Position numbers and translations under genes: made by a program. This document shows, one piece after another, positions 6,924-62,159 of a stretch of DNA of 64,000 nucleotides. Below the pieces are notes generated by a model. It had not been told where the DNA came from. It searched no databases and saw only the letters and a program-made list of their open reading frames with translations. This DNA is from a virus. Location of the stretch: positions 64,001-128,000 of the IMG/VR virus record IMGVR_UViG_3300028840_006907. One strand, written 5' to 3'. Numbering within the stretch: the first letter of the stretch is position 1; the number at the start of each line of letters is the position of its first letter.

Positions 6924-7682
6924 TTGGAGACATCTGTGAAGTATAGCGTACTTGTACCCTACTATAAACGCCTAGGGCACCTACATAATACCTTTATTTC
7001 CTTTCTACACCATTATTCAGATAGAAATGATTATGAGGTTGTCATAGCAGAAGATTATAAAAATGTCCAGAATAAAAAAGACCATGACGGTCTATCAGAA
7101 ACCATTGAGAAATTCCGTGAAAAAATACCGATAATTCATTTAACTCTTTCTATGGAAACCTGGAATCCAGCTCATGGTTTTAATGAAGCTGCAAAGTGGG
7201 CTTCTGGTGAATATTTCGTTGTAACCAATCCAGAATGTTTCCATCAAGTGAACATACTGGCTGGACTCGATAAAGAATTTGAAGAAGACCCCAATGTCTA
7301 TGTTGTATGTGGTTGTATGAATTATGTCCGTTGTAATTTTTTTATTAAAAACTTTAATGATCTAAATGGAAAATTTCAGAGATGGTACCAACACTCAATA
7401 CATAGAGCAGCCCACTATCATTTCTGTTCAGCTATTTCAAAACAGAATTGGGTAAAAATAGGAGGATTCGATGAAGACTTTGCTATGGGTATAGCCTATG
7501 ATGATGTCGATTTTAAATTAAGCATTCAAAAAGCCAAGATACCCTTTCATATCCGGGATGACCTTCTTACTATACATATTGACCATGGTTCCTTCCCATC
7601 TCCTCCAAATGCTCAGAAATTAGTTAATCGAAATAGAATCACCTATCAAAGAAAATGGGAAGGAAGTAATGAATCTTACTAG
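6924..7682 (+). CDS. family-2 glycosyltransferase
   Basis: YSVLVPYYKR N-terminus, EDY and DDVDF acidic motifs. The start may be GTG at 6936, 5 nt after GGAGA. Confidence 0.7.
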   Translation: METSVKYSVLVPYYKRLGHLHNTFISFLHHYSDRNDYEVVIAEDYKNVQNKKDHDGLSETIEKFREKIPIIHLTLSMETWNPAHGFNEAAKWASGEYFVVTNPECFHQVNILAGLDKEFEEDPNVYVVCGCMNYVRCNFFIKNFNDLNGKFQRWYQHSIHRAAHYHFCSAISKQNWVKIGGFDEDFAMGIAYDDVDFKLSIQKAKIPFHIRDDLLTIHIDHGSFPSPPNAQKLVNRNRITYQRKWEGSNESY

Positions 7683-12025: not shown

Positions 12026-15018
12026 ACCCCGCTCAGATGCAGGGAAGAAGATTTCATTAAGAAGTTTTAGGAAGAGCCCCGCAGAGGAGGAACCTCGCAA
12101 GATGCGGGGAAAAGGAACTTCAGGCAATTGGCTGGGATTAGCCCCGCGAAGGTGCGGGGAAAACAGTTTCCATGAACTATATTAGGGAGAGCCCCGTTGA
12201 CACGGGGAAAAACCCGTCTTTACTTAGTGAGATCGAGGAAGGAACAGCCCCGTTGATACGGGGATAAAATAATATGACTTTTACGAATCCTCTAGGGACA
12301 GCCCTGCAGAGTGCAGGGAAAAGTAACGTCTGGGAATTGTTTAGGATTAGCCCCGCGAAGGTGCGGGGAAAGCCATAGATTTTATATTGACACAGGAAAA
12401 ACCCCGGTATAGTCCGGGGAAAAGTACGTAATCAAGATGTAAGAGGATTAGACCCGGCGAGTCCGGGAAAAGATTGGCCCAATCACTATTAAGTAGGGTG
12501 GGATAGCCCCGCAGAATGCAGGGAATAGATGCCTCACTTCATACCACTGCGTCAACCCCAGTAGAGTCCGGGGAACATGAGTGTAAATCTCTGTCGTAGG
12601 TTCAACCCCGGAGAGATCCAGGGGAAATGGGTACAACTTTGTGTACAAGGGGTAGCCCCGGAGAAATCCGAGGAAAATGAGTGTAAATCTGTGTTGAGGG
12701 TCCAGCCCCGCTCAGTGCAGGGAATATTAAGGGTCAAAACCGGTTGCCCCTGCGTCAACCCCGGTGAAGTCCGGGGAACATGAGTGTAAATCTCTGTGGT
12801 AGGATCAACCCCGCAGAGTGCAGGGAAAAATTGAACTTTTTAATCAACCCTGTAACAGCCCCGGAGTCAGTTTTGACAAGTCCGGGGGAATATCACTTCG
12901 TAAAGGAGTGGCTGTCAAGGGGGCAACCCCACAGAGATGTGGGGGAAAGTAAGCCAACGTTCCGGCATAGGCATAGCCCCTGAATTTACAGAGGGCAATT
13001 TTTCCAGTGTCCAGAAGAAGATGCAGGGAGAACCCCGGAAAGTCCAGGGGAAAATGTGTCACAGAACAACTCTTTGTGATCTCCAGGGTGAACCTCGCAG
13101 AGGTGCGGGGGAAAAGTGTCAATGAATACCAGTATGAGTCAGCCCCGGTATAGCCCGGGAATAATTACTTCTAGTCTGATAGAAGGTGCAACCCCGGGAA
13201 GTCCGGGGAAATCGGTCATAGCCATCTGGACCAGGAAGAACCCCGGTGAGATCCGGGGAAAAGGACGTTTAAATCCTGACATAGTAGCTAACTGAGGCGT
13301 AGCTCCGGTCGGGTCAGCCCTGCAGAGAGCAGGGAACAAACATAGGTAATAAATCGGCACGTGACAGCCCCGCAGAGAGGCGGGGATATATAGCGTGAGT
13401 TGCAGGGTAAGGTTCAACCCTTGTTTACCAAGGGAAAAATACCGGCAGATAAGAATTTAGGATGACCCCCGGTGAAAGTCCGGGGAAAATAATTAATACG
13501 CAAAACAGCAGGGCCAGTCCCGCGAGATGCAGGGAATGTTCAGCCAGTTTGTGTAATATTTCAGGAGACGGTGGTGCAACCCTGTCAAGGACAGGGATAT
13601 GCAACATCTGTGGCTCTACGAGGATCAGCCCCGGCAAGTCCGGGGAATTATCTTTTTATAAATGCCAAAAATAACAGTTGGGAGGGGCCAATTCCGCTGA
13701 TGCAGAAAGACATTTCATAATTAATATATTTATGGAAGAGCCCCGGTGAAATCCGGGGAAGTCAAGTAATTACAGCTCGCTGACCACTGGGGGTAGCCCC
13801 GGTAAGATCCGGGGAAAAGTTTGTTTTGAAACAAACGCTAGGAACAGCCCCGCTCAGGTGCGGGAGAATCACTGCATATTTGGTTAATGGCCCCCCTGAG
13901 TCAATCCCGCTCAGGTGCGGGGAAAATAAAGAGATAGACTAATTCAATATGCAGGAAGAACCCCGCTATATGCAGGAAAATTTAAAAAGTATGGATATCT
14001 CCTTGAGTCAACCCCGGAGATCCAGGGAAATGTAGGCACTCGTTGTCCTTTGTCGAAGTGTGAAGGGCAAACCTCGTTGATACGAGGAACAAATTTAGTT
14101 TTACTTTTGAATAAAAGTGGTCAAGCCCCGCTCAGGTGCAGGGAATAGATAAGTATACCGACGATAGCCAGGACAGCACCTGTGGTTTAGCCCTGCATGT
14201 GCAGGGAATAGTTGAGTTGAAGATTGAAGAAAAAGATAAAGTAGGGTCAGCTCTGCATGTGCAGAGAATAGCCTTTCTTCAAGCGTTGACTTGGGAGTAG
14301 GTGGGGATCAGCCCTGCACATGCAGGGAATAGAATGGTGAATCAAATTCCATTTTGTCAAAGAACGGCGACAGCCCTGCCAGTGCAGGGAATATGATTTT
14401 AACGATGGTAAAATTGGGAAGGGGTCAGCCCTGCACATGCAGGGAATAGTCGCTAGTTCAAATCCAATCGCCCCGACAGGATCAGCCCTGCATACGCAGG
14501 GAATAGAAAATACTGACGATAAACTAGCGATATGGGATCAGCCCTGCATACGCAGGGATATAGCTTGACGAATGGCCGTTTTAATGCCAGGAGTAACCCC
14601 GCTGCGAGGAATAGTCATTTCAAATATATAGGTAAAGCCCCGCGAAAGAGCGGGGGTATAATATGGCGGATTTTGTTCTATTGGTGGAATCCGGGCCATC
14701 CCCGTAGATTGACACGGGGAGATCTTTTAGAAATCTACCAAGGTGCCTTTCCGGAGTCATCCCCGTATATACGGGGGAGATTTCAATTCAGGGAATTTCG
14801 GTACAAAATTGGTCGGTTTATCCCCGTATACACGGGGAATATTGTTTCAATAGGGCATAGCAGATCTAGGATCGGGGAATCCCCGCAGGGGCGGGGAACA
14901 TCTCGGATTTATTAATCAAATTCAAACGTTTTTCGGGGAATCCCCGCAGGGGCGGGGAACATTGTTTTAAGAGGTGGTAGTTACCTCGTAGGGGAATCCC
15001 CGCAGGGGCGGGGAACAT
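12026..15018 (-). CRISPR. CRISPR array 1 with highly heterogeneous I-E-like repeats (~55 units)
   Basis: Three identical leader-proximal repeats, GGGGAATCCCCGCAGGGGCGGGGAACAT, start at 14874, 14935 and 14991. Read on the minus strand they are ATGTTCCCCGCCCCTGCGGGGATTCCCC, close to the type I-E consensus GTGTTCCCCGCGCCAGCGGGGATAAACCG. Hairpin units then continue every 49-62 bp down to ~12026. Confidence 0.9.
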
Positions 15019-15127: not shown

Positions 15128-17359
15128 CTAGTGGATATACCGAATCCATTCATATCGAATTTTCATCGTTTTATAAGGAGCTTTTTTTCTCCCTGGAAAT
15201 ATGTTTCCTTCAAAAAGGAAAAATTTTTGAACAATTTTAAATTCAGCGTTTGATGGTGTCAAGCTCTGTGGTGCATAATCCGAACGCCAGTAATTATTAC
15301 AATATATAAATTTTTCTTCTCTGTCTTTTTGTATAAGGCCCGGAAACACCACTAAAACTATCTTTTCGTTTTCAATAACAATATCCCCTTGATAAATAGC
15401 TATTTCTAAATCCAGACCATCCTGCTCTATCACACGAGCATATTTCGAGAGTTTCCCATCAATCTTTACTTTAGCTTTAGGGGGAATATCAAAAGTTATC
15501 CATTCACCTTTTATGTCCTTAATGCTTTGAATAGGTTTTTTAACTGGAATTTCTTGAAAGACATGATCTTGGTATTCTGCTTTTTTAAGGATTTCTCCAT
15601 CTTTTTCCATATTAAGCAATAAAGCCTTTTCCATGATGTCTTTAAGTTCATAGAGATCTTTTTCAGTTAAGGGCTCTTTTGTTCCGAATACGATGGAACC
15701 TACATTCTCTAATCGAGCGATTTTATCAAAACCCTGTTTCCGGACAAAGTCTATGGTAATATGTTCTATTTTTCTATTTCTTGAAAGTCTTATGATTCTT
15801 ACAAATTCAGTTTTAATTGTGTCTTTGAAATTATCAAAACTTAAATGATCTTCTACGTAGGGATGATACAAATCCGCTATAAGACTTAATAAAATTTCTA
15901 TGTCTTCAGGTTTATCCTGTTTACGGTTGTAATCATAAGCTTTAATAATTTCTTGTCTCATTTCCATTAATATATCAGGAGCCATTATTTCACTTAAACT
16001 GGTAGATCCTTTTTTGTCCCGATAAAAGGGAGCTGTTGGAAGTAAGGGAATCCTGATAGCAGCACAAAGTTCTGACATTACAATTGAGGTTAAGAACAAA
16101 TTCAATCTGTCTGAATATAATGCCCTGATATTATTACGTTCTTCTTTTTTAATAGGTGGAACATAAATGTATAACCATATTTTATCTTTTTTAGGGTAAC
16201 ATCTGAAAATACGAAACATTATTTGAGAGAAGGTCACCTGACTCTTTCCATAACTTGTATTATGTAAAACAGCAGCAGGAGGCCAATCATACCCTTCATA
16301 GAATATTCTGCAAGATACGGCGACCCAGTATTTTTTATGATTACGTCTCAATAACTCTCTATTTTTTTTCTGAGTTTCCGGTGTGACTAAATCCAGTACT
16401 TTGGACGCAGGATATATTTCGTGAATAGCTTTTAAATATTTTTTAAGGGTTCCTTCCTCTCTGAACCGGTTCCCCATGTCAGGTAATATGACAATGTGTC
16501 TTTGATCTTTGTGCTCTTTCATATATCTAATGATCTGAGTAAGGGGATCTTTCCTATAGTGAGTGAAACGGAAATTGAATTCTTTGATTTTTATGATTGA
16601 GAGATAGTCATTTAATGGGATAACCCATTTTTCAAAATGATGTTTATAAGCATTGGGGACTATTTCTCCTCTGTCTGTGCGGTGGTAAGTAGCTGTATAA
16701 AAATTTACGTTACAAGTAGGTTCATGGATGGTACATACATCTCTGACAAAATCACCCAAATGAGTGGAATCTAGTGGGGTTGATTTTGAATGATGGCATT
16801 CATCTACATGTACAGTTAAATTTCTAAGGGCTTTCTTTTTTTCATAGTTGGTTAATTTTTCCCAGGTCATGACAAACCCTCTATGGGTAGCTGTAGCAAT
16901 AGGGCCTGTTATATGTTTTTCATTGTACGGGTATTTTCGAGGATCTGCTAAAAGGAATTCTTTAAGTCCTTTAATGGATTGAGGGTTTTCACTATTGAAT
17001 TTATGTTCTTTTGGTACTTCCCACAATCTTACCATACCTTTATATTTGATTTTTATTTGTCTATTTTGGGATCTGCAGAAATTTTCACCTATTTCTATTG
17101 TTGGTGCGATAAAGATATGTTTTCGAGTATTTTTAGATATTATGATTTCATCCAGGGATATGCATACTGCTAAAAAAGTTTTGCCGACTCCCCCTGGTGC
17201 ATCAAAGATCATGTATCTGAATTTTTTCCCATATTCTTTTGCATTGCATTGCCAGCCAGAGGGTATCATGATCCCTGATTCAAGTTTTTTATTATAGGTA
17301 CCAAGGTCAACCGGTTCTATTTTAATAGATTGCTGGAAAAGCGGTAATAGCTTTTTCAT
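15128..17359 (-). CDS. SF2 DExH helicase, Cas3'-like position, no HD nuclease domain
   Basis: Motif I APGGVGKT, motif II DECHH, motif III TAT, motif VI-like QIMFRIFR. Only ~55 aa precede the Walker A, so there is no room for an HD domain. Last gene of the cas operon. Confidence 0.75.
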   Translation of the reverse strand: MKKLLPLFQQSIKIEPVDLGTYNKKLESGIMIPSGWQCNAKEYGKKFRYMIFDAPGGVGKTFLAVCISLDEIIISKNTRKHIFIAPTIEIGENFCRSQNRQIKIKYKGMVRLWEVPKEHKFNSENPQSIKGLKEFLLADPRKYPYNEKHITGPIATATHRGFVMTWEKLTNYEKKKALRNLTVHVDECHHSKSTPLDSTHLGDFVRDVCTIHEPTCNVNFYTATYHRTDRGEIVPNAYKHHFEKWVIPLNDYLSIIKIKEFNFRFTHYRKDPLTQIIRYMKEHKDQRHIVILPDMGNRFREEGTLKKYLKAIHEIYPASKVLDLVTPETQKKNRELLRRNHKKYWVAVSCRIFYEGYDWPPAAVLHNTSYGKSQVTFSQIMFRIFRCYPKKDKIWLYIYVPPIKKEERNNIRALYSDRLNLFLTSIVMSELCAAIRIPLLPTAPFYRDKKGSTSLSEIMAPDILMEMRQEIIKAYDYNRKQDKPEDIEILLSLIADLYHPYVEDHLSFDNFKDTIKTEFVRIIRLSRNRKIEHITIDFVRKQGFDKIARLENVGSIVFGTKEPLTEKDLYELKDIMEKALLLNMEKDGEILKKAEYQDHVFQEIPVKKPIQSIKDIKGEWITFDIPPKAKVKIDGKLSKYARVIEQDGLDLEIAIYQGDIVIENEKIVLVVFPGLIQKDREEKFIYCNNYWRSDYAPQSLTPSNAEFKIVQKFFLFEGNIFPGRKKAPYKTMKIRYEWIRYIH

Positions 17360-17444
17360 TGTCTTTTTCCTCTCAAATAAGTCCTGGAAAGCCTTTTCAG
17401 GGGCTTTCCAGGATTAATGTACTGTGTATTCTATATCAACACTT

Positions 17445-17600
17445 TCAATCGTTTTTATCAATCTCCGTGGCTAATACCGACATAAATGACATTCCGGTTC
17501 CTCCTGGTAATTCAATAATAGAAGGTCTTTTGATGTTCTCTTCTAAATTCCTAGAAGCGAGTTGCCAAGAATAGGCTTTTATAGTTTTTGTATTATTCAT
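17445..17600 (-). CDS. 51-aa ORF resembling the helicase N-terminus (degenerate Walker A)
   Basis: YSWQLA...IIELPGGTGMSFMSVLATEI aligns with SGWQCNA...MIFDAPGGVGKTFLAVCISLDEI of the helicase. GGAG lies upstream. Confidence 0.4.
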   Translation of the reverse strand: MNNTKTIKAYSWQLASRNLEENIKRPSIIELPGGTGMSFMSVLATEIDKND

Positions 17601-17628
17601 TTTAAAATCTCCATATAAAAGGTTTATT

Positions 17629-18273
17629 TTAATAAGATTTATACGGTGCAATAAGCATCATACCACATCCGAAACCTTTACTCTTACCAATTCCATTATA
17701 AATAGTATTCACAAAAAGATTTTTATTGACTACCTGAAGGACTCCTCGTAAATCAATACTGAAAAAAGATACAACTTTACCATCTTTTTTTTTGAATTTA
17801 CAGAATTGAAAAGATTGAACGGAATGCTTTTGAATCATATTTTTAAAACCGTAACTTTGGCCACGTTTCTGAAGCCAATTCTTTGAGGATTCGTGAGCAA
17901 TGAAATTCCAATTATAGGGTTCATCAAGAACTTTCATTTCATTTGCCAGATCCGTCATGATTGAAACCTTTTTCCTGGTTTTCAATTTACAAACTTCGGC
18001 ATTGAGTCTGAGATCGTATTGAAGAAATATTCCAGATTTTAAATTATTTAAATCGAATACTTTTGTTTGTGTAGTGTATTCGTCCTCTGGAGGATTTGGT
18101 TTCTTTTTTGATATGATATAAAGTTCACCATTATAGAGATAATAAAGGAAATCTCTTACCCTGTTAGATCTTTGATCACCAAAAAATTCCCAGACTTTTT
18201 GATGAAGCTCATATATACCTTCGGTGGGAGAATATCTTCTCAAGCTGTCACTGTAAATTTTACTCAGAAACAT
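17629..18273 (-). CDS. cas6e: Cas6e (CasE) crRNA endoribonuclease
   Basis: MFLSKIY...YELHQKVWEFF...RDFLY and C-terminal GIGKSKGFGCGMMLIAP parallel E. coli CasE (MYLSKV...LHQGLW...GIGPAKSMGCGLLSLAP). AGGAGG lies 6 nt upstream of the ATG at 18273. Confidence 0.85.
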   Translation of the reverse strand: MFLSKIYSDSLRRYSPTEGIYELHQKVWEFFGDQRSNRVRDFLYYLYNGELYIISKKKPNPPEDEYTTQTKVFDLNNLKSGIFLQYDLRLNAEVCKLKTRKKVSIMTDLANEMKVLDEPYNWNFIAHESSKNWLQKRGQSYGFKNMIQKHSVQSFQFCKFKKKDGKVVSFFSIDLRGVLQVVNKNLFVNTIYNGIGKSKGFGCGMMLIAPYKSY

Positions 18274-18910
18274 TCGATACCTCCTTCCATCCCATATACT
18301 CAATTCGGGATCGGTATTGTTTGGGACCGGTTACCTGATCAAAACGTTGATTGCTTTTTACTATTTTGATACTGGTATCGGTACCTTCCCAAAATATTCG
18401 GTTCTTTTCACGCCCTTTAAGACTACCATTAAGAAATTCAGGAAGAGAGTACTGTTCAAACGCCTCTGAGAGGCTCTCAGCCTTAACGATCTTAGGATCG
18501 GGTGGTATGTCATAGGAACAGCATTTCCTTCCAAGAAAGGGGGTATAGATGGGCCTATTAAGGGCTTCCATTATTTTCTTCAAAGTATAGGGACAGTTTT
18601 CATTCTCCCATATACATACGGTAAAGATGGCATTGACTAGGTAAAATCTATTCGAGACAATTCCTGGTCCGACTCTGACAATATGGAAATCTTTTAGAAT
18701 AGTACCAGGATTATCTTCCCTACAGGCAAATCCTAGTTGGGCAATCTGAGTTAATTCTTTCACCATTTCTCTTGAGACTCCAAGAGAAGCAGCGATTAAC
18801 CCGCTTACGCCAGATTTGGTAGGGTGATCATCTGTCTTTCGGGTATTACCCTGAAGGGGGAGACCCCAGGCGGATAGAGTACCCGAAAGAAGGAATAATA
18901 AATAATTCAT
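18260..18910 (-). CDS. cas5e: Cas5e (CasD)
   Basis: MNYLLFLLSGTLSAWGLP...TRKT..HPTKSGVSGLIAASLGVSRE parallels the Cas5e N-terminus (LRLAGPMQAWG...PTRSGLLGLLGACLGI). Confidence 0.85.
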   Translation of the reverse strand: MNYLLFLLSGTLSAWGLPLQGNTRKTDDHPTKSGVSGLIAASLGVSREMVKELTQIAQLGFACREDNPGTILKDFHIVRVGPGIVSNRFYLVNAIFTVCIWENENCPYTLKKIMEALNRPIYTPFLGRKCCSYDIPPDPKIVKAESLSEAFEQYSLPEFLNGSLKGREKNRIFWEGTDTSIKIVKSNQRFDQVTGPKQYRSRIEYMGWKEVSNVSE

Positions 18911-18933
18911 AATATTATAACTCCTGGTAACAA

Positions 18934-20019
18934 TTAGAAATCGATGAATTTAATAAGTTCGTTAAGTGATCCTTCTTTTGTGAGTACATTCAAGATCCTA
19001 TAATCCATTTCATGGTAACATGAATCAAAACTACTTTTCATGTCAAGAAGGGCTTTGACAGCATTTTCCATAACCGCAGGACCTTTAATAGGAGTATGGA
19101 AGGCTTGACAGAGACTTCGTGGGGCAGTTGGAGCTTTTTCGATCATAACGAATGCTGGCCATGTTTGACTATCAGCACATCTGTTTTTATTAGCTGAGGG
19201 GGATGAAGTGGTTAATACTTCGACTATCTGTCGGATGGTTTTGATAGCTAGTTCTTTATTACCTTGAAGATTTTTCGTTAAGAGCTTGGAATTGATTACA
19301 AAGAAACTATAATAGACACCCTGGGTAAAATAGAAATTATCTAGGTGACCTGAACCTTTGGTTCCTTCTAATCCAAGGTTATCGGTAGCTGTAAAATAGT
19401 CGGTTTGGACAGATCCTATATCATTGACAGTAAAAGCGAAATTTGAGGACAGTGAAGCTTCAACATCATATTGGGGCAGTTTTGCAATCATGCGACCGGT
19501 AAGGGCTGTTCTGATTCCTGTATTTTCTTTTAAAAAGAAGAATTCTTGATCAGTGGGTTTATGCCCCTCAATAATTTTGTCAATCAGTTCTTCAATATGT
19601 TGTCTTTCGCTCGGTTGAATTTTAATGGTTTCGGTTTTAAGAAGATCAACCTTTTTTTTCTTTTTCTTTGTATTTTTATCATCTTCTTTTTCAGTGTGCT
19701 TTTTGATATCAACAAAAGTACCAATAAATTTAAATGCGTATTCTTCAGCTTTTTTAGGTGATATTCCACCATCAATTAATCTTTTCTCGACATATTTTCC
19801 AATAAGAGGAGTCTGAAGACCTATATCGATTTCGCACCTTTCAAATAGAGCCTTGTTTAAATCATATTTTCGATTTTGTGAAGACGAATAACCTCGGTTG
19901 GTATCATTAAGTTTCATTGTTTTAGGACGTCCGTCCTGGCCTCGGTTTATGCTAGATACAGCTACACCAGTGAGAAGGTGAATTAACCAGTAGGGGTCTT
20001 TAATAATAGTTTTAGACAT
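18934..20019 (-). CDS. cas7e: Cas7e (CasC/Cse4) backbone subunit
   Basis: LIHLLTGVAVSSINRGQDGRPKT...RGYSSSQNRKYDLNKAL parallels CasC (HVLISHSPSCLNRDD...RISSQSLKRAMR). 361 aa, like CasC. Confidence 0.85.
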   Translation of the reverse strand: MSKTIIKDPYWLIHLLTGVAVSSINRGQDGRPKTMKLNDTNRGYSSSQNRKYDLNKALFERCEIDIGLQTPLIGKYVEKRLIDGGISPKKAEEYAFKFIGTFVDIKKHTEKEDDKNTKKKKKKVDLLKTETIKIQPSERQHIEELIDKIIEGHKPTDQEFFFLKENTGIRTALTGRMIAKLPQYDVEASLSSNFAFTVNDIGSVQTDYFTATDNLGLEGTKGSGHLDNFYFTQGVYYSFFVINSKLLTKNLQGNKELAIKTIRQIVEVLTTSSPSANKNRCADSQTWPAFVMIEKAPTAPRSLCQAFHTPIKGPAVMENAVKALLDMKSSFDSCYHEMDYRILNVLTKEGSLNELIKFIDF

Positions 20020-20045
20020 AAATACTCCTTGATATTTATTATTTA

Positions 20046-21989
20046 TTATATGTTATTTGAATATTCTCTTTCCCAGTAGAACTTGACATCTTTGCTCCAG
20101 TGGGCATACCCTTCCATGAAACTGATGATGTTAAATCCTTCCATTCGAGAAACAACATCAGCAAATACTTTCCAGTTTTTTTGTATATCCGTTTTATTGA
20201 AACTCATCATTTCGTCAACATGTCGGCGGTTAATTTTTTGAGAACCCATTTGGGCACCGAAAGATTGAGAAAAATCCAGATCCTTAGCTTTAAAAACAAT
20301 TAGTAGAAGAGGTACGAAAAGAGTCTTCATATCTTCTGATCTTAAAGCAGGGAAATGCATAGACATTTCTAAAATAAAATTCAAATAAAGGTCTTCATGT
20401 TTTAAGATATCGATGTCAAAACATCGGGTAAATACCCTATGTTTTTCTGTATTTCTAATAGTCCCGTACCAGGACAGGAATGGTTTGGTAAAGACCTGGT
20501 TAAAATGAGGTAGGTTTAATTTCCTGTATTCGATATGGGCGAAATTCTCATATTCTAATGGTTGTAGTTTAAGAGGTTTAACAACTTTTTTATTTAAGGT
20601 TTCGATAAATTGTTCCTTAAAATATTTCTGTAAACCTCTCTTTTCAGTACCTACATTTTTTTCAAATGTATCGAAAGCTTTAACTACCATCTTTTCCAAC
20701 CATTTTTCGATATTATGATTCTTGAGAACTTCATAGAAGTATTCTTCAGTTTCTGTCAGAAATTCGTGAAATATTAAAGGTTCGGTTTTATCAGTTCCCC
20801 AGAACTTTCTTATATAATTACAGGTATACCATCCTATAAGATATGAGTGTTCTCTGATATTTAAAGTAAACGCACTATCTTTATAGAGTTCTTCTGGGAT
20901 ATCGAATTTATTTTCCTCCCATCCAAAGAGTTTGGCTTTAGCCATATTATAACCGAAAGTCCATAATCCGAAATCAGTTATTCCAAGATATTCTCGGTTC
21001 TCCATGAAATGACTCACCACTAAAGCTGGAGTTAATTTTTTAGCTGGTAGTAGATAGGTCACAAGATCGAGATGGCTGGTAAAGTCCAGGGGTTTCCGGA
21101 AACCTGTTTCTTTGCCTTTTATAATGGGTGAAAGGATATGACGTGGTTTGACATAACAGTTACCATAATTCCTCGTTTTTATCTTTCTAACCATTAATTT
21201 GGAATGATTGCCACAGATAGTACATGATTCATCAAATTTATCAAAGATAAGATGAATACGTAGAGGCATTTCCCAGAGCGGGTAATAAGGATTCATCTCA
21301 TCCAGGGAAACAGTAGCTTTGTTTTTACTATCAACGGTATCACTAAGCCATGGGAGTGTTACACCTTTTGGATTTCCTCCGAATTCAAACATGGTCTTTT
21401 TAATAATAACATTAGACCATATTGTTTCCCATAACGTGGAACCGGTAATAATAGTGGTAAGAGAACCATTGGCACCGGCTGTTATCGAAGTACGGTATCC
21501 TTGGCCTCCCATAATGGCACTGAGTTGATTAAGATAAAGGGCAATTGTAGCACAGGATTGGCAAAAAGTATGTATCTTTGCTTTTTGGAAGAAATCTTTA
21601 CCAGCTTTAATTGTCGCTGTCCCTGGAGTATCAAAGAGGAGATTACCAACATTTACGATTCTTTCAAGGTCCTGTGGCCGTTTATCCTGTAAAAAACGAG
21701 GACCTTTGCCATCTAGTTCAAAGAGTTTTGGTTTAAGTTTTTCTAGGATGGCTTTTTGGTTTGGTGCTTTTTTGAATAGTTTTTTCCATTCTTTCTTACT
21801 TGTAGGAGCAAGATAAGTGTTGAAAAAACCTATGAGAAGCCGTACACCTACAGCATTGAAATCGGGTCTACCGAAATCGAGAGCTATTATAGGGTTATTA
21901 GGTTTTGAAGTTATTTTGTAGGGTGGAATGTTTTCCCTGGTACCGTCTTTTCGGATGACGGGGATCCAAGGGTCCTTAATTACATTCAT
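20046..21989 (-). CDS. cas8e: Cas8e (Cse1) large subunit with fused Cas11/Cse2-like C-terminal domain
   Basis: N-terminus MNVIKDPWIPV and CQSCATIALYLNQ...GGQGYR parallel Cse1 (NWIPV; CGGCTAIALFNQ...GGGFK). The C-terminal ~170 aa (SFGAQMGSQKINRRHVDEMM...HWSKDVKFYWEREY) parallels Cse2 (SLGRALANSGRINERRIFQLI...WWGKRERQQLLEDF). There is no separate cas11 gene. Confidence 0.8.
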   Translation of the reverse strand: MNVIKDPWIPVIRKDGTRENIPPYKITSKPNNPIIALDFGRPDFNAVGVRLLIGFFNTYLAPTSKKEWKKLFKKAPNQKAILEKLKPKLFELDGKGPRFLQDKRPQDLERIVNVGNLLFDTPGTATIKAGKDFFQKAKIHTFCQSCATIALYLNQLSAIMGGQGYRTSITAGANGSLTTIITGSTLWETIWSNVIIKKTMFEFGGNPKGVTLPWLSDTVDSKNKATVSLDEMNPYYPLWEMPLRIHLIFDKFDESCTICGNHSKLMVRKIKTRNYGNCYVKPRHILSPIIKGKETGFRKPLDFTSHLDLVTYLLPAKKLTPALVVSHFMENREYLGITDFGLWTFGYNMAKAKLFGWEENKFDIPEELYKDSAFTLNIREHSYLIGWYTCNYIRKFWGTDKTEPLIFHEFLTETEEYFYEVLKNHNIEKWLEKMVVKAFDTFEKNVGTEKRGLQKYFKEQFIETLNKKVVKPLKLQPLEYENFAHIEYRKLNLPHFNQVFTKPFLSWYGTIRNTEKHRVFTRCFDIDILKHEDLYLNFILEMSMHFPALRSEDMKTLFVPLLLIVFKAKDLDFSQSFGAQMGSQKINRRHVDEMMSFNKTDIQKNWKVFADVVSRMEGFNIISFMEGYAHWSKDVKFYWEREYSNNI

Positions 21990-22266: not shown

Positions 22267-22586
22267 CAGCCCCGGTAAAGTCCAGGGAAATAAAAATTAG
22301 TGATAATTCGGGAATCAGCAGGAGGAGAGCATCAGCCCTGCGTATGCGGGGAATAGTGTTATCGTCTTACAGGATGTAAAGCAGAGACAGCCCCGCGTAT
22401 GCGGGGAATAGAAATTAATACATCTCATAAAATCTAGCATCAGCCCCGCGTATGCGGGGAATAGTTATTTATCTATACTTCCTACAACTCCCATAACGCA
22501 TCAGCCCCGCGTATGCGGGGAATAGCTCGTTGGTTTTCCCATTCCACAAAAGTTCAACGCATCAGCCCCGCGTATGCGGGGAATAG
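22267..22586 (-). CRISPR. CRISPR array 2 (6 repeats)
   Basis: GCATCAGCCCCGCGTATGCGGGGAATAG occurs at 22437, 22498 and 22559, with variants at 22329 and 22384 and a divergent unit at 22267. The two leader-proximal spacers are 33 nt. Minus-strand reading is CTATTCCCCGCATACGCGGGGCTGATGC. Confidence 0.9.
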
Positions 22587-32474: not shown

Positions 32475-32885
32475 TTATACAAATTCAGTCATTGCTGTTA
32501 TATCAAATTTTAACTGAATCGGTATTGGTGCACCAAAATCCCATATAGAGAATTCTTTACAGTCAGTGCATCTATAAATTACTTCATTATCAGATTCTGT
32601 TATGAAACTTCCAGAAGTAATCAGCTCATTTCCGCAATTACATTTTAAAAAAGTGCATGGTTCATATGTAAATCTAACATCATACCAATCCAAACATTTC
32701 TGTGAAACTGAATTGAATGTTTCCATTCCTATTTGATTTTTTAAGCATCTTTGTAGGATATAAGCAGTTGAAAGGATTTTTAATTTTCCTTCAAGCTTTT
32801 TCCACCAAATGAATCTTCTCACAATTCTGGTTTTATTATAGACTTTCTTATGTATGCCTGGGTATGGATGAATATTGATCGCCAT
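32475..32885 (-). CDS. hypothetical Cys-containing protein
   Basis: ORF track. Confidence 0.55.
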   Translation of the reverse strand: MAINIHPYPGIHKKVYNKTRIVRRFIWWKKLEGKLKILSTAYILQRCLKNQIGMETFNSVSQKCLDWYDVRFTYEPCTFLKCNCGNELITSGSFITESDNEVIYRCTDCKEFSIWDFGAPIPIQLKFDITAMTEFV

Positions 32886-32912
32886 CTTGAATTACTCCAT
32901 AATATAAAAAGA

Positions 32913-33232
32913 ACCTCATACTCTCAGTGCCTTTCAAGTCAAATTCCATTGCCAAATCCATGCATTAATCTGATATAGAATATATTTGTACTTGAGGTGA
33001 CATAATCGCCTGTCCCGCCTAGGCCAATCGTCTCTCGTTGGGCAAAGGATCGAACATATTAGTTGTCCCTATACCCTTGTGAGCCCGATTTTCAAGAGCA
33101 GAAATCTTTCTGGTATCGTCAAGAAAGATCCGCGACTGCACTTCGATAACATTTCTTTATCTTTTATTTTCGAGATACCACCGGAAATATCTTCATCAAT
33201 ACTTTGTAACCTCCTTTTGAGAGGGTATGAGG
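32913..33232 (-). ncRNA. candidate structured RNA (unclassified)
   Basis: ~320 nt with no credible ORF, visibly GC-richer than its flanks. Termini pair: acctcatactctc with gagagggtatgagg. On the minus strand the closing stem is followed by a T-run. Confidence 0.3.
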
Positions 33233-33242
33233 CCCTATTAAT

Positions 33243-33881
33243 TTAAAAAATACTTTTATATAATGTATTGTCACTATTTCCAATTTTATATGAAACTAGC
33301 GCTCCGAATTCTACAAATCGTTGCATTAATAAATATGCTTTGGCTCCAAATTTTTTAGAATAATCTTCAATCAATTCTGCCAGCTCTTCACGAGAAAATA
33401 AATGCGTGGTTATATCTTCACTTGCTTCGCTTAGATCTGAACTTATTTCTCCTTTAACAGAGCATAAAATCATAAATACCGATTCGTTCGTTAATCCTGT
33501 TGAACTATATATCGGAGGAGATACATGAAATATTTGATCGATATCTAATCCAGTTTCCTCCTTCATTTCTCTACGAGCCGCGATTTCGGGTGTCTCTCCT
33601 TTATCTATGAGCCCAGCAGGAAGGCCCCACTCGTAGTCTTCCAATGGTACTCTGTACTCTTTTGTTATCACCATTTTTCCATTATATAAAGCAGCGATAA
33701 CTACAGCTTTTTGATTATTAATTCTACGTACCCAATCCCATTTTTTATGTTCACCTCTTGTATCAATATATGGTGATGTAACCATTTGGATAAAAGGTGT
33801 TTTAAAATTAATTTCGATTAGATCCTTTAATATCCTCATTTTTCCATTAATCCTTAGAAATAAATGTTTCTGGTAACTCAT
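33243..33881 (-). CDS. NUDIX hydrolase (ADP-ribose pyrophosphatase-like)
   Basis: Nudix box GLPAGLIDKGETPEIAARREMKEETGL. Confidence 0.8.
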   Translation of the reverse strand: MSYQKHLFLRINGKMRILKDLIEINFKTPFIQMVTSPYIDTRGEHKKWDWVRRINNQKAVVIAALYNGKMVITKEYRVPLEDYEWGLPAGLIDKGETPEIAARREMKEETGLDIDQIFHVSPPIYSSTGLTNESVFMILCSVKGEISSDLSEASEDITTHLFSREELAELIEDYSKKFGAKAYLLMQRFVEFGALVSYKIGNSDNTLYKSIF

Positions 33882-34425: not shown

Positions 34426-34502
34426 TGGTACCCCAATCAGGACTCTAACCTGAAATCTTTGGCTCCGGAAACCAACGCTTTATACAATTAAGCTATTGGG
34501 GC
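34426..34502 (-). tRNA. tRNA-Arg(CCG)
   Basis: Hand-folded cloverleaf: acceptor GCCCCAA/TTGGGGT, anticodon loop TTCCGGA, T-loop TTAGAGT, CCA encoded. Confidence 0.85.
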
Positions 34503-34511
34503 ATTATAAGA

Positions 34512-34586
34512 TGGCGGTGCGTAAGGGAATCGAACCCTTGCCAGGAGATCGACAGTCTCCGGTCCTAACCACTGAACGAACGCACC
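34512..34586 (-). tRNA. tRNA-Asp(GTC)
   Basis: Acceptor GGTGCGT/ACGCACC, anticodon loop CTGTCGA, T-loop TTCGATT, CCA encoded. Confidence 0.9.
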
Positions 34587-34782
34587 GTATTTTTATTAAT
34601 CAATTTTTTTATTTCCGATAAAAAGACCGCAGTCGCATTGCCGAGCCATTTTCGTTTTATTCTTTATTACAATGCCTATTGCTTTAATAGGCTTTTTACA
34701 AGTGTTGCAAATATTTTGCTGTGTCTTTTTGTCATGCTGTTTCACTGCTGTTTTAGCCATTACTTGTACTCCTTAAATGTTA

Positions 34783-34856
34783 TGGCAGGGACGGTCAGAT
34801 TCGAACTGACATCGCCGGTTTTGGAGACCGGGTGCTTGACCGTTAGCGACGCCCCT
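34783..34856 (-). tRNA. tRNA-Trp(CCA)
   Basis: Acceptor AGGGGCG/CGTCCCT, anticodon loop CTCCAAA, T-loop TTCGAAT, CCA encoded. Confidence 0.85.
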
Positions 34857-35062
34857 GTATTGACAAATTTTTCATGATTTGAACCATTCACTACAACCTT
34901 CGGCTAGTTCTAATAAATGAACACAAGGTTTTGTTTCTTTTGCCAGAACACAGCCACACACTGTACAAATTACCACAGCAGGTTTCAAATCATGTTTCTC
35001 AATTTCAGCGAATGCTTTCACTATATCATTCACTATATCATTCATTTTTTCTCCGAATTATC

Positions 35063-35135
35063 TGGGCGCAGACGGACTTGAACCGCCCACGAATGGCTTA
35101 TGAGACCACTACTCTACCGACTGAGTTATACGCCC
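35063..35135 (-). tRNA. tRNA-Met/Ile2(CAT)
   Basis: Acceptor GGGCGTA/TGCGCCC, anticodon loop CTCATAA, T-loop TTCAAGT. Confidence 0.85.
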
Positions 35136-35143
35136 TTGACTTA

Positions 35144-35221
35144 TGGCACACCCGGCACGATTTGAACGTGCGACTTCTTCGTTCGTGGCGAAGATCTCTA
35201 TCCGGACTGAGTTACGGGTGC
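35144..35221 (-). tRNA. tRNA-Arg(ACG)
   Basis: Acceptor GCACCCG/CGGGTGT, anticodon loop CCACGAA (note C rather than U at position 33), CCA encoded. Confidence 0.75.
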
Positions 35222-35227
35222 GTATTT

Positions 35228-35728
35228 TTATAAAAAAGTTTTATACGTTTTTTTATTAATGATATATGATAATGTTGATTTTGCTGATTTATATTCCTTT
35301 GCTAATTTATTTAAACTTTCTCCATTTTTATTTCTGTTAATTATAGATTCTATCTCTTTTTTTGTGAATTTTCTTAATTTATACGCAGCTTTAACTGCTT
35401 GCTCTTTTCTTTCTTTTTCAGGTATATCAAATGAATTCTCTGATCTTGTACCAATTGATATATTAGAATCATTGAAATTTAATCTATTTCTATCTAAGTG
35501 TCTAGTCTCAATCCCTTCTTCAAAAACTTTATCCCCAAATAAAAAGTATGCTTTTAATTTATGTACTTTTAAATTTTTAATCTTTTTGTTTACATAGATA
35601 TTTATGGTAGGGTAACCTTTTGAATAATGGAATCTTAAAGGTTTTCCCATTGGCCCAATAACTTCATTTTTATCATTAAAATGATATCCTTTTTTTACAG
35701 CTATTTTTAAGACATCATTATTTTTCAT
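35228..35728 (-). CDS. HNH (HNH_3/NUMOD-type) homing endonuclease
   Basis: VHKLKAYFLFGD...ETRHLDRNRLNFNDSNISIGTRSEN plus a C-terminal HTH-like tail. Sits inside the tRNA cluster. Confidence 0.7.
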   Translation of the reverse strand: MKNNDVLKIAVKKGYHFNDKNEVIGPMGKPLRFHYSKGYPTINIYVNKKIKNLKVHKLKAYFLFGDKVFEEGIETRHLDRNRLNFNDSNISIGTRSENSFDIPEKERKEQAVKAAYKLRKFTKKEIESIINRNKNGESLNKLAKEYKSAKSTLSYIINKKTYKTFL

Positions 35729-35748
35729 ATATTAATTTTTCTTTCTAA

Positions 35749-35821
35749 TAGGGGTACGGGGAGTCGAACCCCGGTCGTGGGAGAGAAAATCCCATATCCT
35801 AAGCCATTAGAAGATACCCCC
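35749..35821 (-). tRNA. tRNA-Glu(TTC)
   Basis: Acceptor GGGGGTA/TACCCCT, anticodon loop TTTTCTC, T-loop TTCGACT. Confidence 0.85.
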
Positions 35822-35866
35822 ATAAAATAAAAAAGCTCCTGTCTGGTTCTCACCCGACAGGAGCTT
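35822..35866 (-). terminator. rho-independent terminator
   Basis: 11-bp stem aagctcctgtc/gacaggagctt, followed on the minus strand by TTTTATTTT. Confidence 0.7.
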
Positions 35867-53794: not shown

Positions 53795-53868
53795 GCCGGA
53801 ATAGCTCAGTTGGCCAGAGCGGTTGATTTGTAATCAATTCGTCGGGGGTTCGAATCCCTCTTTCGGCT
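53795..53868 (+). tRNA. tRNA-Thr(TGT)
   Basis: Acceptor GCCGGAA/TTTCGGC, anticodon loop TTTGTAA, T-loop TTCGAAT. Confidence 0.85.
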
Positions 53869-53934
53869 TGTAAATTTATTTGGAAAGGAGATGACATGAT
53901 GGCGAAAGTGTGATACTTAAACAAAGGAGCCGTT

Positions 53935-54234
53935 ATGTCTCATCCGAAAAACAAAAGAGAACGTTTTCTTATTGGGAAACGTAAAGGGGAAAAACGTTCT
54001 TATTTGTATTGGAGTGGTTATTCCAATTGGTTTGACCTTCCAGATTATTTCTATAAGAAAAGCCCTCGTAATAAGGGTGTTGAGTATGAGGAGAAAAAGA
54101 GATTACTCGAAAAGAGTAAAGCAATAAGAAGGGATACAACAAAGTTATGCTCTTGTCCTCAGTGTGGAAATCCGCGCAGACATTTTAAAGAGCGTACTTT
54201 ACAAGAAAAAAGATATTTTACTGCGGGGGGCTAG
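53935..54234 (+). CDS. basic hypothetical protein with CxxC
   Basis: ORF track. Its 3' end overlaps the next tRNA by ~13 nt. Confidence 0.5.
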   Translation: MSHPKNKRERFLIGKRKGEKRSYLYWSGYSNWFDLPDYFYKKSPRNKGVEYEEKKRLLEKSKAIRRDTTKLCSCPQCGNPRRHFKERTLQEKRYFTAGG

Positions 54235-54294
54235 GCCTGGTGGTCTGGCAGGTCTCATAAGCCTGCAACTCAAGTTCAATTCTTGGCCCCGCAA
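54222..54294 (+). tRNA. tRNA(CAT), Met or Ile2
   Basis: Acceptor TGCGGGG/CCCCGCA (U1-A72), anticodon loop CTCATAA, T-loop TTCAATT. The D/anticodon junction is tight. Confidence 0.65.
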
Positions 54295-54314
54295 ATGCAT
54301 ATAAAGGGGAAATA

Positions 54315-54683
54315 ATGGGAATGGATATACATGAGTGTTTTGAATATAAATTAAAATCATTTAATGAAATGGTTGCAAAGATCAATGAGAAACCGAAAGA
54401 AGATGAAGAGATCGATCTTGATAAACCTTATATCAGTCAATGGGATCATTTTGAGAGCTTCTTGAGGGAATTAATCTCTGATGATCACAGTCGGTTTAAA
54501 AGTGCTATTTTATGGCTTTTCTTTGCTGATGAAGAATTAGAGTTGCATGAAAAGATGAAAAACTTGTTTAACATATTAACAGATTTTGACGATAAACAAT
54601 TGATCTCTATGGTTTATGATTCGGGTTGTGATCGAGTGAAAGTTGATTTTGATAAATCGGAAAGTATAATTCATATGGAATAA
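54315..54683 (+). CDS. hypothetical acidic protein
   Basis: ORF track. Confidence 0.55.
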   Translation: MGMDIHECFEYKLKSFNEMVAKINEKPKEDEEIDLDKPYISQWDHFESFLRELISDDHSRFKSAILWLFFADEELELHEKMKNLFNILTDFDDKQLISMVYDSGCDRVKVDFDKSESIIHME

Positions 54684-54689
54684 AAATGG

Positions 54690-54765
54690 GGGCCGGAATG
54701 TTCCAAGGGGGCGAGAATGCCTTGCAAGCAATCTGCGGTGAGTTCGATTCTCACTCGGTCCACCA
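54690..54765 (+). tRNA. tRNA-Ala(TGC) with poorly paired D-arm
   Basis: Exactly 76 nt. G3-U70 present. Anticodon loop CTTGCAA, T-arm GTGAG-TTCGATT-CTCAC, CCA encoded. The D-stem (tgtt/gcga) has only 2 of 4 pairs. Confidence 0.6.
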
Positions 54766-54780
54766 TAAGTAAAATAACAA

Positions 54781-54908
54781 AATCTTTCAAAAGGAAGTAG
54801 GCTTAAGAGTAGCCACTTTAATGAGTGATGAAAGGCGATGTGCACACGAATTTCGTGGAGTAGTTATCCGAATAGTCTTTGGTGTAACAACACACCTTTT
54901 GAAAGATT
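54781..54908 (+). ncRNA. structured inter-tRNA element (unclassified)
   Basis: Perfect 14-bp closing stem aatctttcaaaagg/ccttttgaaagatt encloses ~100 nt with internal hairpins (cacgaatttcgtg; ggtgt..acacc). Confidence 0.35.
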
Positions 54909-54919
54909 ATTAATATAAT

Positions 54920-54994
54920 GCGAGTGTAGTTCAATGGCAGAACCCCACCCTTCCAAGGTGGTTGTTGTGAGTTCAAATCTCATCACTCGCTCCA
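54920..54994 (+). tRNA. tRNA-Gly(TCC)
   Basis: Acceptor GCGAGTG/CACTCGC, anticodon loop CTTCCAA, CCA encoded. Confidence 0.9.
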
Positions 54995-55001
54995 AATTTA
55001 T

Positions 55002-55076
55002 GCGGTAGTAGCTCAATGGTGGAGTTCCTCTTTGCCAAGGAGGAGGTTATCGGTTCAAGCCCGATCTACCGCTCCA
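55002..55076 (+). tRNA. tRNA-Gly(GCC)
   Basis: Acceptor GCGGTAG/CTACCGC, anticodon loop TTGCCAA, CCA encoded. Confidence 0.9.
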
Positions 55077-55166
55077 GGTCAAAGGCTCTGGCAGGTTGCC
55101 TTAAATAAAATGGGGTGTGGGTACCTAGGCACTTCTCACATCTCTGCCTGACCTGATTAAATTTAC

Positions 55167-55245
55167 GGGCGCGTAGCCTAGCTGGTTAGGGCACCTGTTT
55201 TACACGCAGGAGATTTCGTAGGTTCAAGTCCTACCGCGCCTACCA
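55167..55245 (+). tRNA. tRNA-Val(TAC)
   Basis: Acceptor GGGCGCG/CGCGCCT, anticodon loop TTTACAC, T-loop TTCAAGT, CCA encoded. Confidence 0.85.
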
Positions 55246-55253
55246 TAAATCAA

Positions 55254-55328
55254 GCCGGAGTAGCTCAGAGGCAGAGCAACGCTCTCGTAAAGCGTAGGTC
55301 AAGGGTTCAAGTCCCTTTTCCGGCTCCA
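55254..55328 (+). tRNA. tRNA-Thr(CGT)
   Basis: Acceptor GCCGGAG/TTCCGGC, anticodon loop CTCGTAA, CCA encoded. Confidence 0.9.
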
Positions 55329-60767: not shown

Positions 60768-60843
60768 GGCTGTCTGACCGATGTGGTAAAGGTGCTGGAC
60801 TGAAAATCCAGAAATTCCGGTTCAATTCCGGAGGCAGCCACCA
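60768..60843 (+). tRNA. tRNA-Phe(GAA)
   Basis: Acceptor GGCTGTC/GGCAGCC, anticodon loop CTGAAAA, T-loop TTCAATT, CCA encoded. Confidence 0.85.
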
Positions 60844-60870
60844 TTAGTAAATTAGTGTTTTTTAATAAAA

Positions 60871-60946
60871 GGGCGTATCGGCAAGCGGTTAAGCCACTAC
60901 TCTGATAAGGTAGCATGCGAAAGTTCAAATCTTTCTACGCCCACCA
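60871..60946 (+). tRNA. tRNA-Ile(GAT)
   Basis: Acceptor GGGCGTA/TACGCCC, anticodon loop CTGATAA, CCA encoded. Confidence 0.9.
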
Positions 60947-60965
60947 TAAATCTTAGGAGGACAAG

Positions 60966-61732: not shown

Positions 61733-61733
61733 C

Positions 61734-61819
61734 GCAGACGTGCTGGAATGGTAGACAGGCTTGGCTAAGGACCAAGTGTTCGTATGGGCGTGAGAGTTCG
61801 AGTCTCTCCGTCTGCACCA
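61734..61819 (+). tRNA. tRNA-Leu(AAG), type II
   Basis: Acceptor GCAGACG/CGTCTGC, anticodon stem CTTGG/CCAAG, loop CTAAGGA, long variable arm, CCA encoded. Confidence 0.8.
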
Positions 61820-61833
61820 TATAGGAAGTAAAG

Positions 61834-61998
61834 ATGGGCGAATGTAATTGCTGTTATATGACAATGGGAGAACATGCTTTGACTTGCCCTGCGTATAAAA
61901 GGGATAAAAGTCAGCCCTGTGATTGTTGCTATATGACAACAGGAGAACATGCTCTTACTTGCCCACAGTATGAAATTGAAGATAATGAGGAGGATTAA
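61834..61998 (+). CDS. 54-aa protein with a tandem Cys motif
   Basis: C(N/D)CCYMT(M/T)GEHALTCP(A/Q)Y occurs twice. AGGAAG RBS. Confidence 0.45.
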   Translation: MGECNCCYMTMGEHALTCPAYKRDKSQPCDCCYMTTGEHALTCPQYEIEDNEED

Positions 61999-62150: not shown

Positions 62151-62159
62151 TATGTAAAC

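Follow-up and report, generated by a model that had tools for sequence, protein, structure and literature searches.

A structured RNA family of huge phages with a probable site of self-association

What is encoded by a few hundred bases of phage DNA that hold no open reading frame (ORF) and whose ends can pair? The question is raised by a 64,000-nucleotide (nt) stretch of a viral genome (IMG/VR record IMGVR_UViG_3300028840_006907, positions 64,001 to 128,000), here called the window. Between a NUDIX hydrolase gene and the gene for a zinc-ribbon protein, ORF136, an original prediction made from the sequence alone had placed a structured RNA that it could not classify. The element, a minus-strand feature at window positions 32906-33245, belongs to an RNA family previously uncatalogued and, within the searched data, limited to five distinct contigs of one huge-phage clade. 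The explanation favored here, with confidence a little better than even, is a gene on the minus strand for a stable, highly structured non-coding RNA of ~330 nt that acts in trans and self-associates through the apex of one of its arms, P9.

The gap and its relatives

The gap between the NUDIX gene and ORF136 is 357 bases long and was correctly described as free of ORFs. Stop codons interrupt all six frames, and the longest ORFs reach 55 amino acids (aa) on the plus strand and 40 aa on the minus strand. The G+C elevation is present, although modest rather than marked as claimed: 39.2% in the gap vs 34.8% in the window, rising locally to 44% at 32950-33099. The G+C-rich stretch that had been singled out is the P7 hairpin region (32998-33024). 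Pairing of the two ends was found again (ACCTCATACTCTC, 32913-32925, with its partner at 33221-33233) and corresponds to family helix P1; by itself such an inverted repeat is no proof, because chance alone would give the window about two such 13-mers with at most two mismatches. The internal hairpin atctttct...agaaagat is the distal portion of helix P5, and TTTTT does follow the closing stem on the minus strand (32906-32910). Folding energy is better than that of shuffled sequences on the minus strand (z = -2.34), and not on the plus strand (z = -0.85).

Ten further units occur on four distinct contigs of related huge phages, and with the window copy they make up a family of 11. The relatives' units share its position, after the NUDIX gene and near a tRNA island. 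The number per contig varies: the window and L005 have a single unit, L002 has two, L012 three and L007 four. Units are tandem and diverged, ~230-400 nt in length and mostly near 300 nt by repeat analysis of the gaps. The ORF-free stretch after the NUDIX gene lengthens from that of the window to 383 nt in L005, 669 nt in L002, 1454 nt in L007 and at least 1007 nt in L012. Gene order around it is conserved: tRNA island, a 162-aa gene, NUDIX, the gap, small genes, ORF136, an HD/OB (YhaM-like) gene, lipase and radical SAM.

The relationship is visible only to profiles. Pairwise BLAST joins the relatives' gaps to one another and not to the window gap; plain blastn and single-sequence nhmmer likewise failed to connect the window copy with its relatives. 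An nhmmer profile from the 11-unit MAFFT alignment (A3) recovered every unit at E <= 2.6e-16, with exactly one copy in the window. A profile of the ten non-window units matched the window at 33234-32904 (minus strand) end to end with E = 9e-11, and its second-best match in the 64 kb had E = 0.58. Family membership is therefore independent of the author's curation. The units have in common a TATAAATTAAAGG box, then TGCAGTCGCAGAGA...TCTCTGTTCTTnAA, then CCTAGGnnGACAGG...AAGTCnCATCAAG, then GGCAyyy, and last the closing stem with its T-run; the window copy carries every one of these motifs in identical order.

No known family accounts for the element. The Rfam 15 families covered include GOLLD, ROOL, OLE, raiA, HEARO, tmRNA, RNase P, 6S, Y RNA and riboswitches. 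At the locus none matches at gathering thresholds, which upholds the unclassifiable status first given to it, and E <= 10 adds just two chance-level matches to eukaryotic or archaeal models. The relatives' arrays likewise match no Rfam 15 family. ARAGORN reports 21 tRNAs and one tmRNA in the window, none of them at 32886-33242. Among GenBank phages the gap and its flanks are without any match, and no RNA of this kind turned up in searches of the literature. Core motifs scanned against IMG/VR (twice) and against GTDB genomes gave 45, 120 and 33 loci, none of which fits the family profile. The RNA is absent from 80 IMG/VR loci bearing NUDIX relatives; locus searches through NUDIX, ORF136 or their alignments returned no additional RNA-bearing loci, only distant NUDIX loci without the RNA.

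A number of other candidates were tried and rejected. A likeness to RNase P RNA was dropped, the GGAAAGUCC and ACAGAA motifs of its P4 being missing. Resemblances to a T-box leader, Y RNA, retron msr and a CsrB-like sponge were considered and then dropped. For a retron or DRT non-coding RNA, no reverse-transcriptase domain was found in the called genes within ~3 kb on either side. For a TnpB/IscB omega RNA (HEARO-type), both RNA ends are paired in P1, the neighbors are NUDIX, ORF136 and HD/OB genes, and there is no HEARO match.

A common fold supported by covariation

The 11 units support one fold, with P1 as closing stem, P2 as a hairpin and P4 around a junction of P5, P6, P7 and P9, and with two pseudoknots and conserved junction nucleotides (Table 1). 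RNAalifold on raw MAFFT alignments gave P1 (14 pairs), P5 (GCAGAGA/UCUCUGU) and P8 (4 bp), with many of the pairs compensatory. The further helices P2, P4, P7, P9 and K came from side-by-side reading of the units. P4 (consensus RRRUGC/GCAYYY) is long-range and encloses P5, P6, P7/P8 and P9. The consensus of P7 is CCU/AGG, and that of the P9 base is CAAGU/ACUUG. The P2 hairpin comes straight after P1, and its loops, often of the GNRA type, are GAAA (four units), GUGA, AAAA (two units) and others. Pseudoknot K illustrates how pairing is kept while sequence changes: GGUAUC/GAUACC in the window becomes GGCAUU/GGUGCC in L005, GAUAUC/GAUAUC and AAUAUC/GAUAUU in the two units of L002 (L002A and L002B), and GAUAUU/AAUAUC in the second unit of L007 (L007u2).

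For the helix alignments A4 and A6, equal-length helix strands were joined into pseudo-sequences, and the MAFFT result was gapless; three bulged bases were removed and N was entered where an element is absent. In A6, with 46 pairs tested, 96.1% of cells form a standard pair, compared to 39-53% when the 3' partner is slid by 1-3 columns. Compensatory double changes are found at 35 of the 46 pairs, at least one of them in each helix, and the observed values were reached in 0 of 500 shuffles. The structure is large, multi-helix, pseudoknotted and covarying, with eight helices including two pseudoknots. Comparison with related phages had been proposed at the outset as a check on the structured RNA, and covariation there is strong for seven helices and one loop-loop pseudoknot; together with the Rfam null result it supports an RNA of unclassified type on the minus strand. 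Chance is untenable as the origin, given the effect size, the recovery of three helices from raw alignments and the profile match obtained without the window. The strand is indicated by 45 G-U cells in A6. As A-C on the opposite strand these would reduce pairing to 87%, and the RNA therefore lies on the window minus strand, the same as the flanking genes. Held to the consensus, the window copy folds at -87.5 kcal/mol vs an unconstrained minimum of -94.4, with the pseudoknots left uncounted in both.

Individual units show additional features. L007 unit 4 (L007:3152-3385) is a natural minimal variant: P2 and the P3 domain are missing, and the complement of its P5 loop (AAUACC) is instead GGUAUU in the P6 loop. 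This unit may reveal what the fold can do without. In the window copy, a perfect Shine-Dalgarno sequence, AAGGAGGU, makes up the 3' strand of P2 (region 33163-33216, minus strand), and a 10-codon micro-ORF, MKIFPVVSRK, starts 13 nt past it. The micro-ORF is not conserved in the relatives, whose P2 is likewise pyrimidine-run/GGAG-like.

Table 1. Elements of the window RNA and its two flanking genes, with coordinates in the window
Feature	Position	Strand	Details
NUDIX hydrolase gene	33243..33881	-	upstream, syntenic anchor; Pfam NUDIX, E=5e-17
A/T-rich box TAAATTAATA	33236..33245	-	5' of P1; TATAAATTAAAGG in relatives; overlaps NUDIX stop; conserved before most units (A3)
P1 5' strand, GGGCCUCAUAC	33225..33235	-	closing stem; partner 32911-32921; 9/9 inner pairs compensatory, 11 units
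P2 hairpin CCUCU-CAAAA-GGAGG	33210..33224	-	100% of cells paired; 4/5 pairs compensatory
P3 domain	33144..33209	-	variable; loop segment GGUAUC (33174-33179) forms K with P5 loop
Pseudoknot K, P3 loop/P5 loop	33174-33179 + 33112-33117	-	6 bp; 98.3% paired; 5/6 pairs compensatory
P4 5' strand AAGUGC	33138..33143	-	partner 32925-32930; 5/6 pairs compensatory
Conserved junction AGUC	33134-33137	-	after P4 5' strand
P5 hairpin GCGGAUC...UUUCUGC	33098..33133	-	RNAalifold, raw alignments; loop segment GAUACC (33112-33117)
Single-stranded junction UCUUGAAAA	33089..33097	-	family consensus UCYNNRAA; conserved columns in alignments A3, A7
P6 domain	33025..33088	-	variable; unit-to-unit length and sequence differences; local hairpin in constrained fold
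P7 hairpin GCCU/AGGC	32998..33024	-	90.9% paired, compensatory changes
P8, GGAC + downstream GUCA		-	GGAC is 3' part of P7 loop; H-type pseudoknot; 88.6% paired, compensatory; RNAalifold, raw alignment
P9 arm, base CAAGU/ACUUG	32935..32994	-	base 100% paired; 4/5 pairs compensatory
P9 apex AUGCAU	32960-32965	-	within 8-nt loop A-AUGCAU-G
P4 3' strand GCACUG	32925..32930	-	partner of P4 5' strand
P1 3' strand, GUAUGAGGUUC	32911..32921	-	partner of P1 5' strand
U-tract	32906..32910	-	directly after P1; read from sequence; U-rich run after P1 in most units
ORF136 gene	32475..32885	-	downstream; zinc-ribbon protein, no Pfam family

Probable self-association and trans action, and the alternatives

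The distal part of P9 varies in length and sequence, and its apex is a perfect palindrome in 10 of the 11 units. Outside the window the palindromes are AGUGCACU (L005), GAACAUGUUC (L002A), CAGUGCACUG (L002B), AGCAUGCU (L012u2), CCUAUGCAUAGG (L012u3), AACCGGUU (L007u1), GAUCGAUC (L007u2) and ACCGGU (both L007u3 and L007u4). The central tetranucleotide is UGCA in four units, CCGG in three, CAUG in two and UCGA in one. When the units are aligned on the apex center, the adjacent central bases are complementary in 10/10 (CG 4, GC 4, AU 2), as are the next two mirror pairs outward; over four mirror pairs 92.5% hold vs 20-40% with partners slid. The predicted apical loop center is the palindrome center in about seven units, and six of the palindromes were placed in the same columns by MAFFT (A3) independently. 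No other apical loop has the palindromic property, the P2 loops being GAAA-like and the P5 loop engaged in K.

Bases that are neighbors are unable to pair within a single chain. A loop tetranucleotide that switches among palindromes was taken by Kretsch et al. 2025 as a sign of symmetric intermolecular kissing loops in OLE L9.3 and GOLLD L21a, where the kissing loops were also seen directly by cryogenic electron microscopy (cryo-EM) (PMC12286853). With centers chosen by the author, a symmetric loop covarying between palindromes in that sense (PMC12286853) is present in 10/11 units. The new RNA probably self-associates through the P9 apex. RNAcofold favors a duplex for any hairpin, and its result is no evidence of a dimer. 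In the HIV-1 DIS hairpin, a loop with a purine-flanked 6-nt palindrome drives loop-loop homodimerization. The 8-nt loop at the window P9 apex, A-AUGCAU-G, is also a purine-flanked 6-nt palindrome; in contrast, the RNA and its context are unrelated, and elsewhere in the family the loops are shorter or the palindromes longer.

Each unit would be a self-contained gene, with a -10-like box 5' of P1 and a U-tract 3' of it. The box precedes each unit, ends ~5-7 nt before the first P1 base, and could be a -10-like promoter element or a processing site; the U-tract is a possible transcript end. Since the box is just 5' and the U-tract just 3' of P1, the mature RNA would have flush paired ends. Box and U-run may mean that every RNA is transcribed as a unit of its own, or they may mark sites at which a longer transcript is processed. 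Tandem paralogous units, like those of small RNA (sRNA) or tRNA genes, argue for a product that acts in trans and not as a leader. Support for this comes from the 1-4 tandem units with their own box, P1 and U-rich run, and from the different genes that come after the arrays. With self-complementary P9 apices, two molecules would pair loop to loop, and the RNA would work as a symmetric homodimer or larger assembly after the manner of OLE, ROOL and GOLLD. The tRNA-island neighborhood and the YhaM-like HD/OB gene point loosely to an RNA- or translation-related role during infection. A tentative extension, held with distinctly less confidence, is a new class of self-assembling RNAs, closed by P1, locked by the two pseudoknots and each tipped with a palindromic kissing loop of its own, whose paralogues (e.g., GAACAUGUUC vs CAGUGCACUG in L002) would form orthogonal homodimers or larger RNA-only particles acting on host or phage RNA or on the translation machinery during infection.

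The RNA is closest in kind to the ornate phage-borne RNAs ROOL and GOLLD, and to OLE, but shares no homology with them. Comparison with GOLLD, ROOL and HEARO had been part of the original prediction; it holds as an analogy, that of a phage RNA near a tRNA island, and fails as homology. ROOL and GOLLD are encoded by phages or prophages, often near tRNA islands, and are of unknown function (PMC12286853). Like OLE, ROOL and GOLLD, the new RNA is non-coding, with many covarying helices and pseudoknots, and its P9, like OLE L9.3 and GOLLD L21a, has a loop center that switches among palindromes; its multimerization is predicted from sequence. It differs from these three in size (~330 nt vs ~580-800 nt or more), in its tandem arrays of diverged paralogues, found so far in one small huge-phage clade, and in the lack of any sequence or structure homology in Rfam. 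Tandemly duplicated genes for trans-acting sRNAs of 50-150 nt with a single-stranded seed are found in Listeria (LhrC1-5) and Pseudomonas (PrrF1/2). The arrangement is similar, with paralogous RNA genes head to tail on the same strand, every one of them ending in a U-run. In contrast to those sRNAs, the new RNA is ~300 nt and closed by P1, and its conserved unpaired bases lie in the junctions of a compact fold.

Only a small number of large structured RNAs of unknown function have been described, and the RNA-only assemblies of OLE, ROOL and GOLLD raise the value of each new class. A length of ~330 nt puts in vitro transcription, chemical probing and cryo-EM of this one within routine reach. 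Covariation already defines its secondary and tertiary pairings well, and mutation of the palindromic apex with complementary rescue would test self-association directly. Tandem paralogue arrays, and a distribution restricted to huge phages that carry tRNA islands, a tmRNA and a CRISPR-Cas system of their own, bring a new element to a little-understood phage RNA biology.

A number of observations weigh against a self-associating RNA gene that acts in trans. The A6 counts lean toward the proposed structure because alignment was by eye, bulges were dropped and absent elements were padded with N. The 11 units on five contigs (the window's included) are the whole sample, and paralogues in one array are not independent. 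At the apex, the palindrome centers were picked by hand, a palindrome of 6 nt is no rarity when loops are A/T-rich and 20-50 nt long (per-unit shuffle P 0.01-0.65), and the P9 loop of L012u1 has no palindrome. The apex palindrome may also act at the DNA level, e.g., as a protein-binding site. The box motif is not enriched across the window. Consensus scans found no convincing sigma-70 promoter and no hairpin terminator at the locus, and these scans were uninformative; the immediate 5' flanks of the phage tRNA genes are A/T-rich too. Transcript ends are inferred from sequence alone. In addition, the last unit always stops 20-30 nt ahead of the ribosome-binding site of the next gene, a spacing that would suit a leader or co-transcription as well.

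The main rival is a cis-acting leader for ORF136, a riboswitch-like attenuator whose core would bind a ligand or protein and stabilize P1, so that P1 and the U-tract terminate transcription before ORF136 and the genes that follow. The unit is single and directly upstream of ORF136 in both the window and L005, with P1 and the U-run 20-30 nt before the ribosome-binding site, and one relative, L009, has lost the RNA array and an intact ORF136 together. A P1-closed multi-helix junction, pseudoknots and a place upstream of a gene are also traits of large riboswitches, and the conserved unpaired junction nucleotides resemble an aptamer core. Tandem riboswitch arrangements are known (PMC9481103). A leader is rated less likely than a trans-acting RNA. 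Up to four complete tandem units occur with their own boxes and U-runs, and in L002, L007 and L012 other small genes stand between the array and ORF136, and the immediate downstream gene differs. A terminator with a 'loop' of ~300 nt would be kinetically unusual, no conserved alternative antiterminator pairing is seen, and the palindromic apex has no role in a leader. Unlike riboswitches, the RNA has no riboswitch-model match and no separate expression platform, along with its up to four full units and varied downstream genes. Somewhat less likely again, and compatible with a trans-acting, self-associating RNA, is a ribonucleoprotein in which the RNA would serve a phage protein, ORF136 being the most plausible, as subunit or specific ligand. 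The RNA adjoins ORF136 or lies within ~0.5 kb of it on five of five contigs, and the L009 locus is in keeping, with the array missing and an ORF136 that has in-frame stops and no start. The N-terminal half of the protein is basic, it contains a C4 zinc ribbon with weak TFIIS-type matches, and one relative in a Bacillus phage carries the annotation nucleic-acid-binding protein. On the other hand, co-loss is one case only, ORF136 homologues on short contigs are uninformative about the RNA, a known RNA-binding domain was not found in ORF136, and its AlphaFold model is unusable (pLDDT 44).

The inverted-repeat ends, and a TnpB-like C-terminus at the equivalent locus of L010, could suggest a miniature mobile element with terminal inverted repeats, or an IS200/IS605-type remnant or its guide (omega) RNA. 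This is very improbable. The P1 repeat sequences are wholly different among units yet complementary, including G-U pairs, which implies selection on an RNA and not on a transposase site. The copy in the window is the only one there, which counts against a repeated mobile element. It shows no flanking direct repeat, no nuclease or transposase gene adjoins it in the window, Rfam gives no match to HEARO or another omega RNA, and the L010 TnpB looks like an independent insertion. Recognition as a decayed protein gene had been named beforehand as a refutation of the RNA and is not supported; such a gene, decayed or recoded, is the most improbable of the explanations considered. Protein genes do occupy the gap of L009 (a PP2C phosphatase and a 91-aa ORF). 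Conservation among the units, however, is base-pair covariation and is not codon-like, and tblastn with proteins from the relatives' equivalent gaps finds nothing in the window gap. Stops of more than one kind occur in every frame, so no single stop-codon reassignment rescues an ORF.

Neighboring genes and other features of the window

The RNA or its array starts at the NUDIX stop codon or within ~40 nt of it in the window, L002, L005 and L007. The NUDIX gene is probably an ADP-ribose pyrophosphatase of phage NAD metabolism. Its distant homologues (L258, L259) occur in NAD-salvage clusters without the RNA, and NUDIX is therefore a neighbor and no evident partner. These clusters include nicotinamidase-like, NAD synthase, nucleotidyltransferase and NAPRTase genes, and one NUDIX homologue also adjoins a Thg1-like gene.

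All contigs long enough to include ORF136 have it downstream of the RNA, directly so in the window and L005. Twelve homologues (n=12) were found, with 50-67% identity and all metagenomic; the weak TFIIS-type zinc-ribbon matches occur in 8/12 family members. ORF136 has no relative in the PDB, and its AlphaFold model is too poor for a fold search. It is a possible functional partner or regulated gene. In L009 (2396-4231), the PP2C phosphatase gene and the 91-aa ORF are found where the relatives have the RNA array, and the ORF136 homologue is a pseudogene. This single joint loss hints at a link between the RNA and ORF136. In L010 (3-449), the TnpB-like C-terminus (RuvC and zinc-finger motifs, recognized by eye) is at the site of the relatives' RNA array and abuts a 5'-truncated copy of a 97-aa gene known from L012. 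This suggests an independent IS200/IS605-type insertion at a variable spot, truncating the 97-aa gene. The HD/OB protein gene is also encoded downstream of the RNA, and we take its domain pair to resemble that of the YhaM 3'-5' exonuclease.

A tRNA island is found ~1.2 kb upstream of the RNA locus in the window (34426-35822), L002 and L009. The RNA is phage-encoded beside this island, on a 389-kb phage-like contig, and the arrangement is the same in L002. Between tRNA genes of the RNA-adjacent island is an HNH/HTH homing-endonuclease-like ORF (35228-35728, minus strand) with weak Pfam matches. Hallmarks of the source phage are its 21 tRNAs, a tmRNA and a type I-E cas operon. The tRNA genes form three islands (34426-35822, 53795-55328 and 60768-63431). 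A weak 104-nt tRNA match at 63069-63172 (30.1 bits), not called by ARAGORN, could be an intron-containing or degenerate tRNA. The phage tmRNA (47870-48282, minus strand; Rfam 159.9 bits) has an ARAGORN-predicted tag peptide that is unusually long, 28 residues.

The type I-E-like cas operon (15128-21989, minus strand) encodes Cse1/Cas8e, Cas7 (CT1975 family), Cas5, a Cas6e-like protein and a 743-aa ResIII/DEAD helicase. G+C-rich palindromic repeats (e.g., CAGCCCCGCGTATGCGGGGAATAG) form two short arrays, at 12551-12813 and 22388-22525, that resemble mini CRISPR arrays. A 1514-aa ORF (2341-6885, plus strand) has no Pfam match. The radical SAM protein encoded at 7669-9762 (plus strand) is split by an intein with a LAGLIDADG homing-endonuclease domain.

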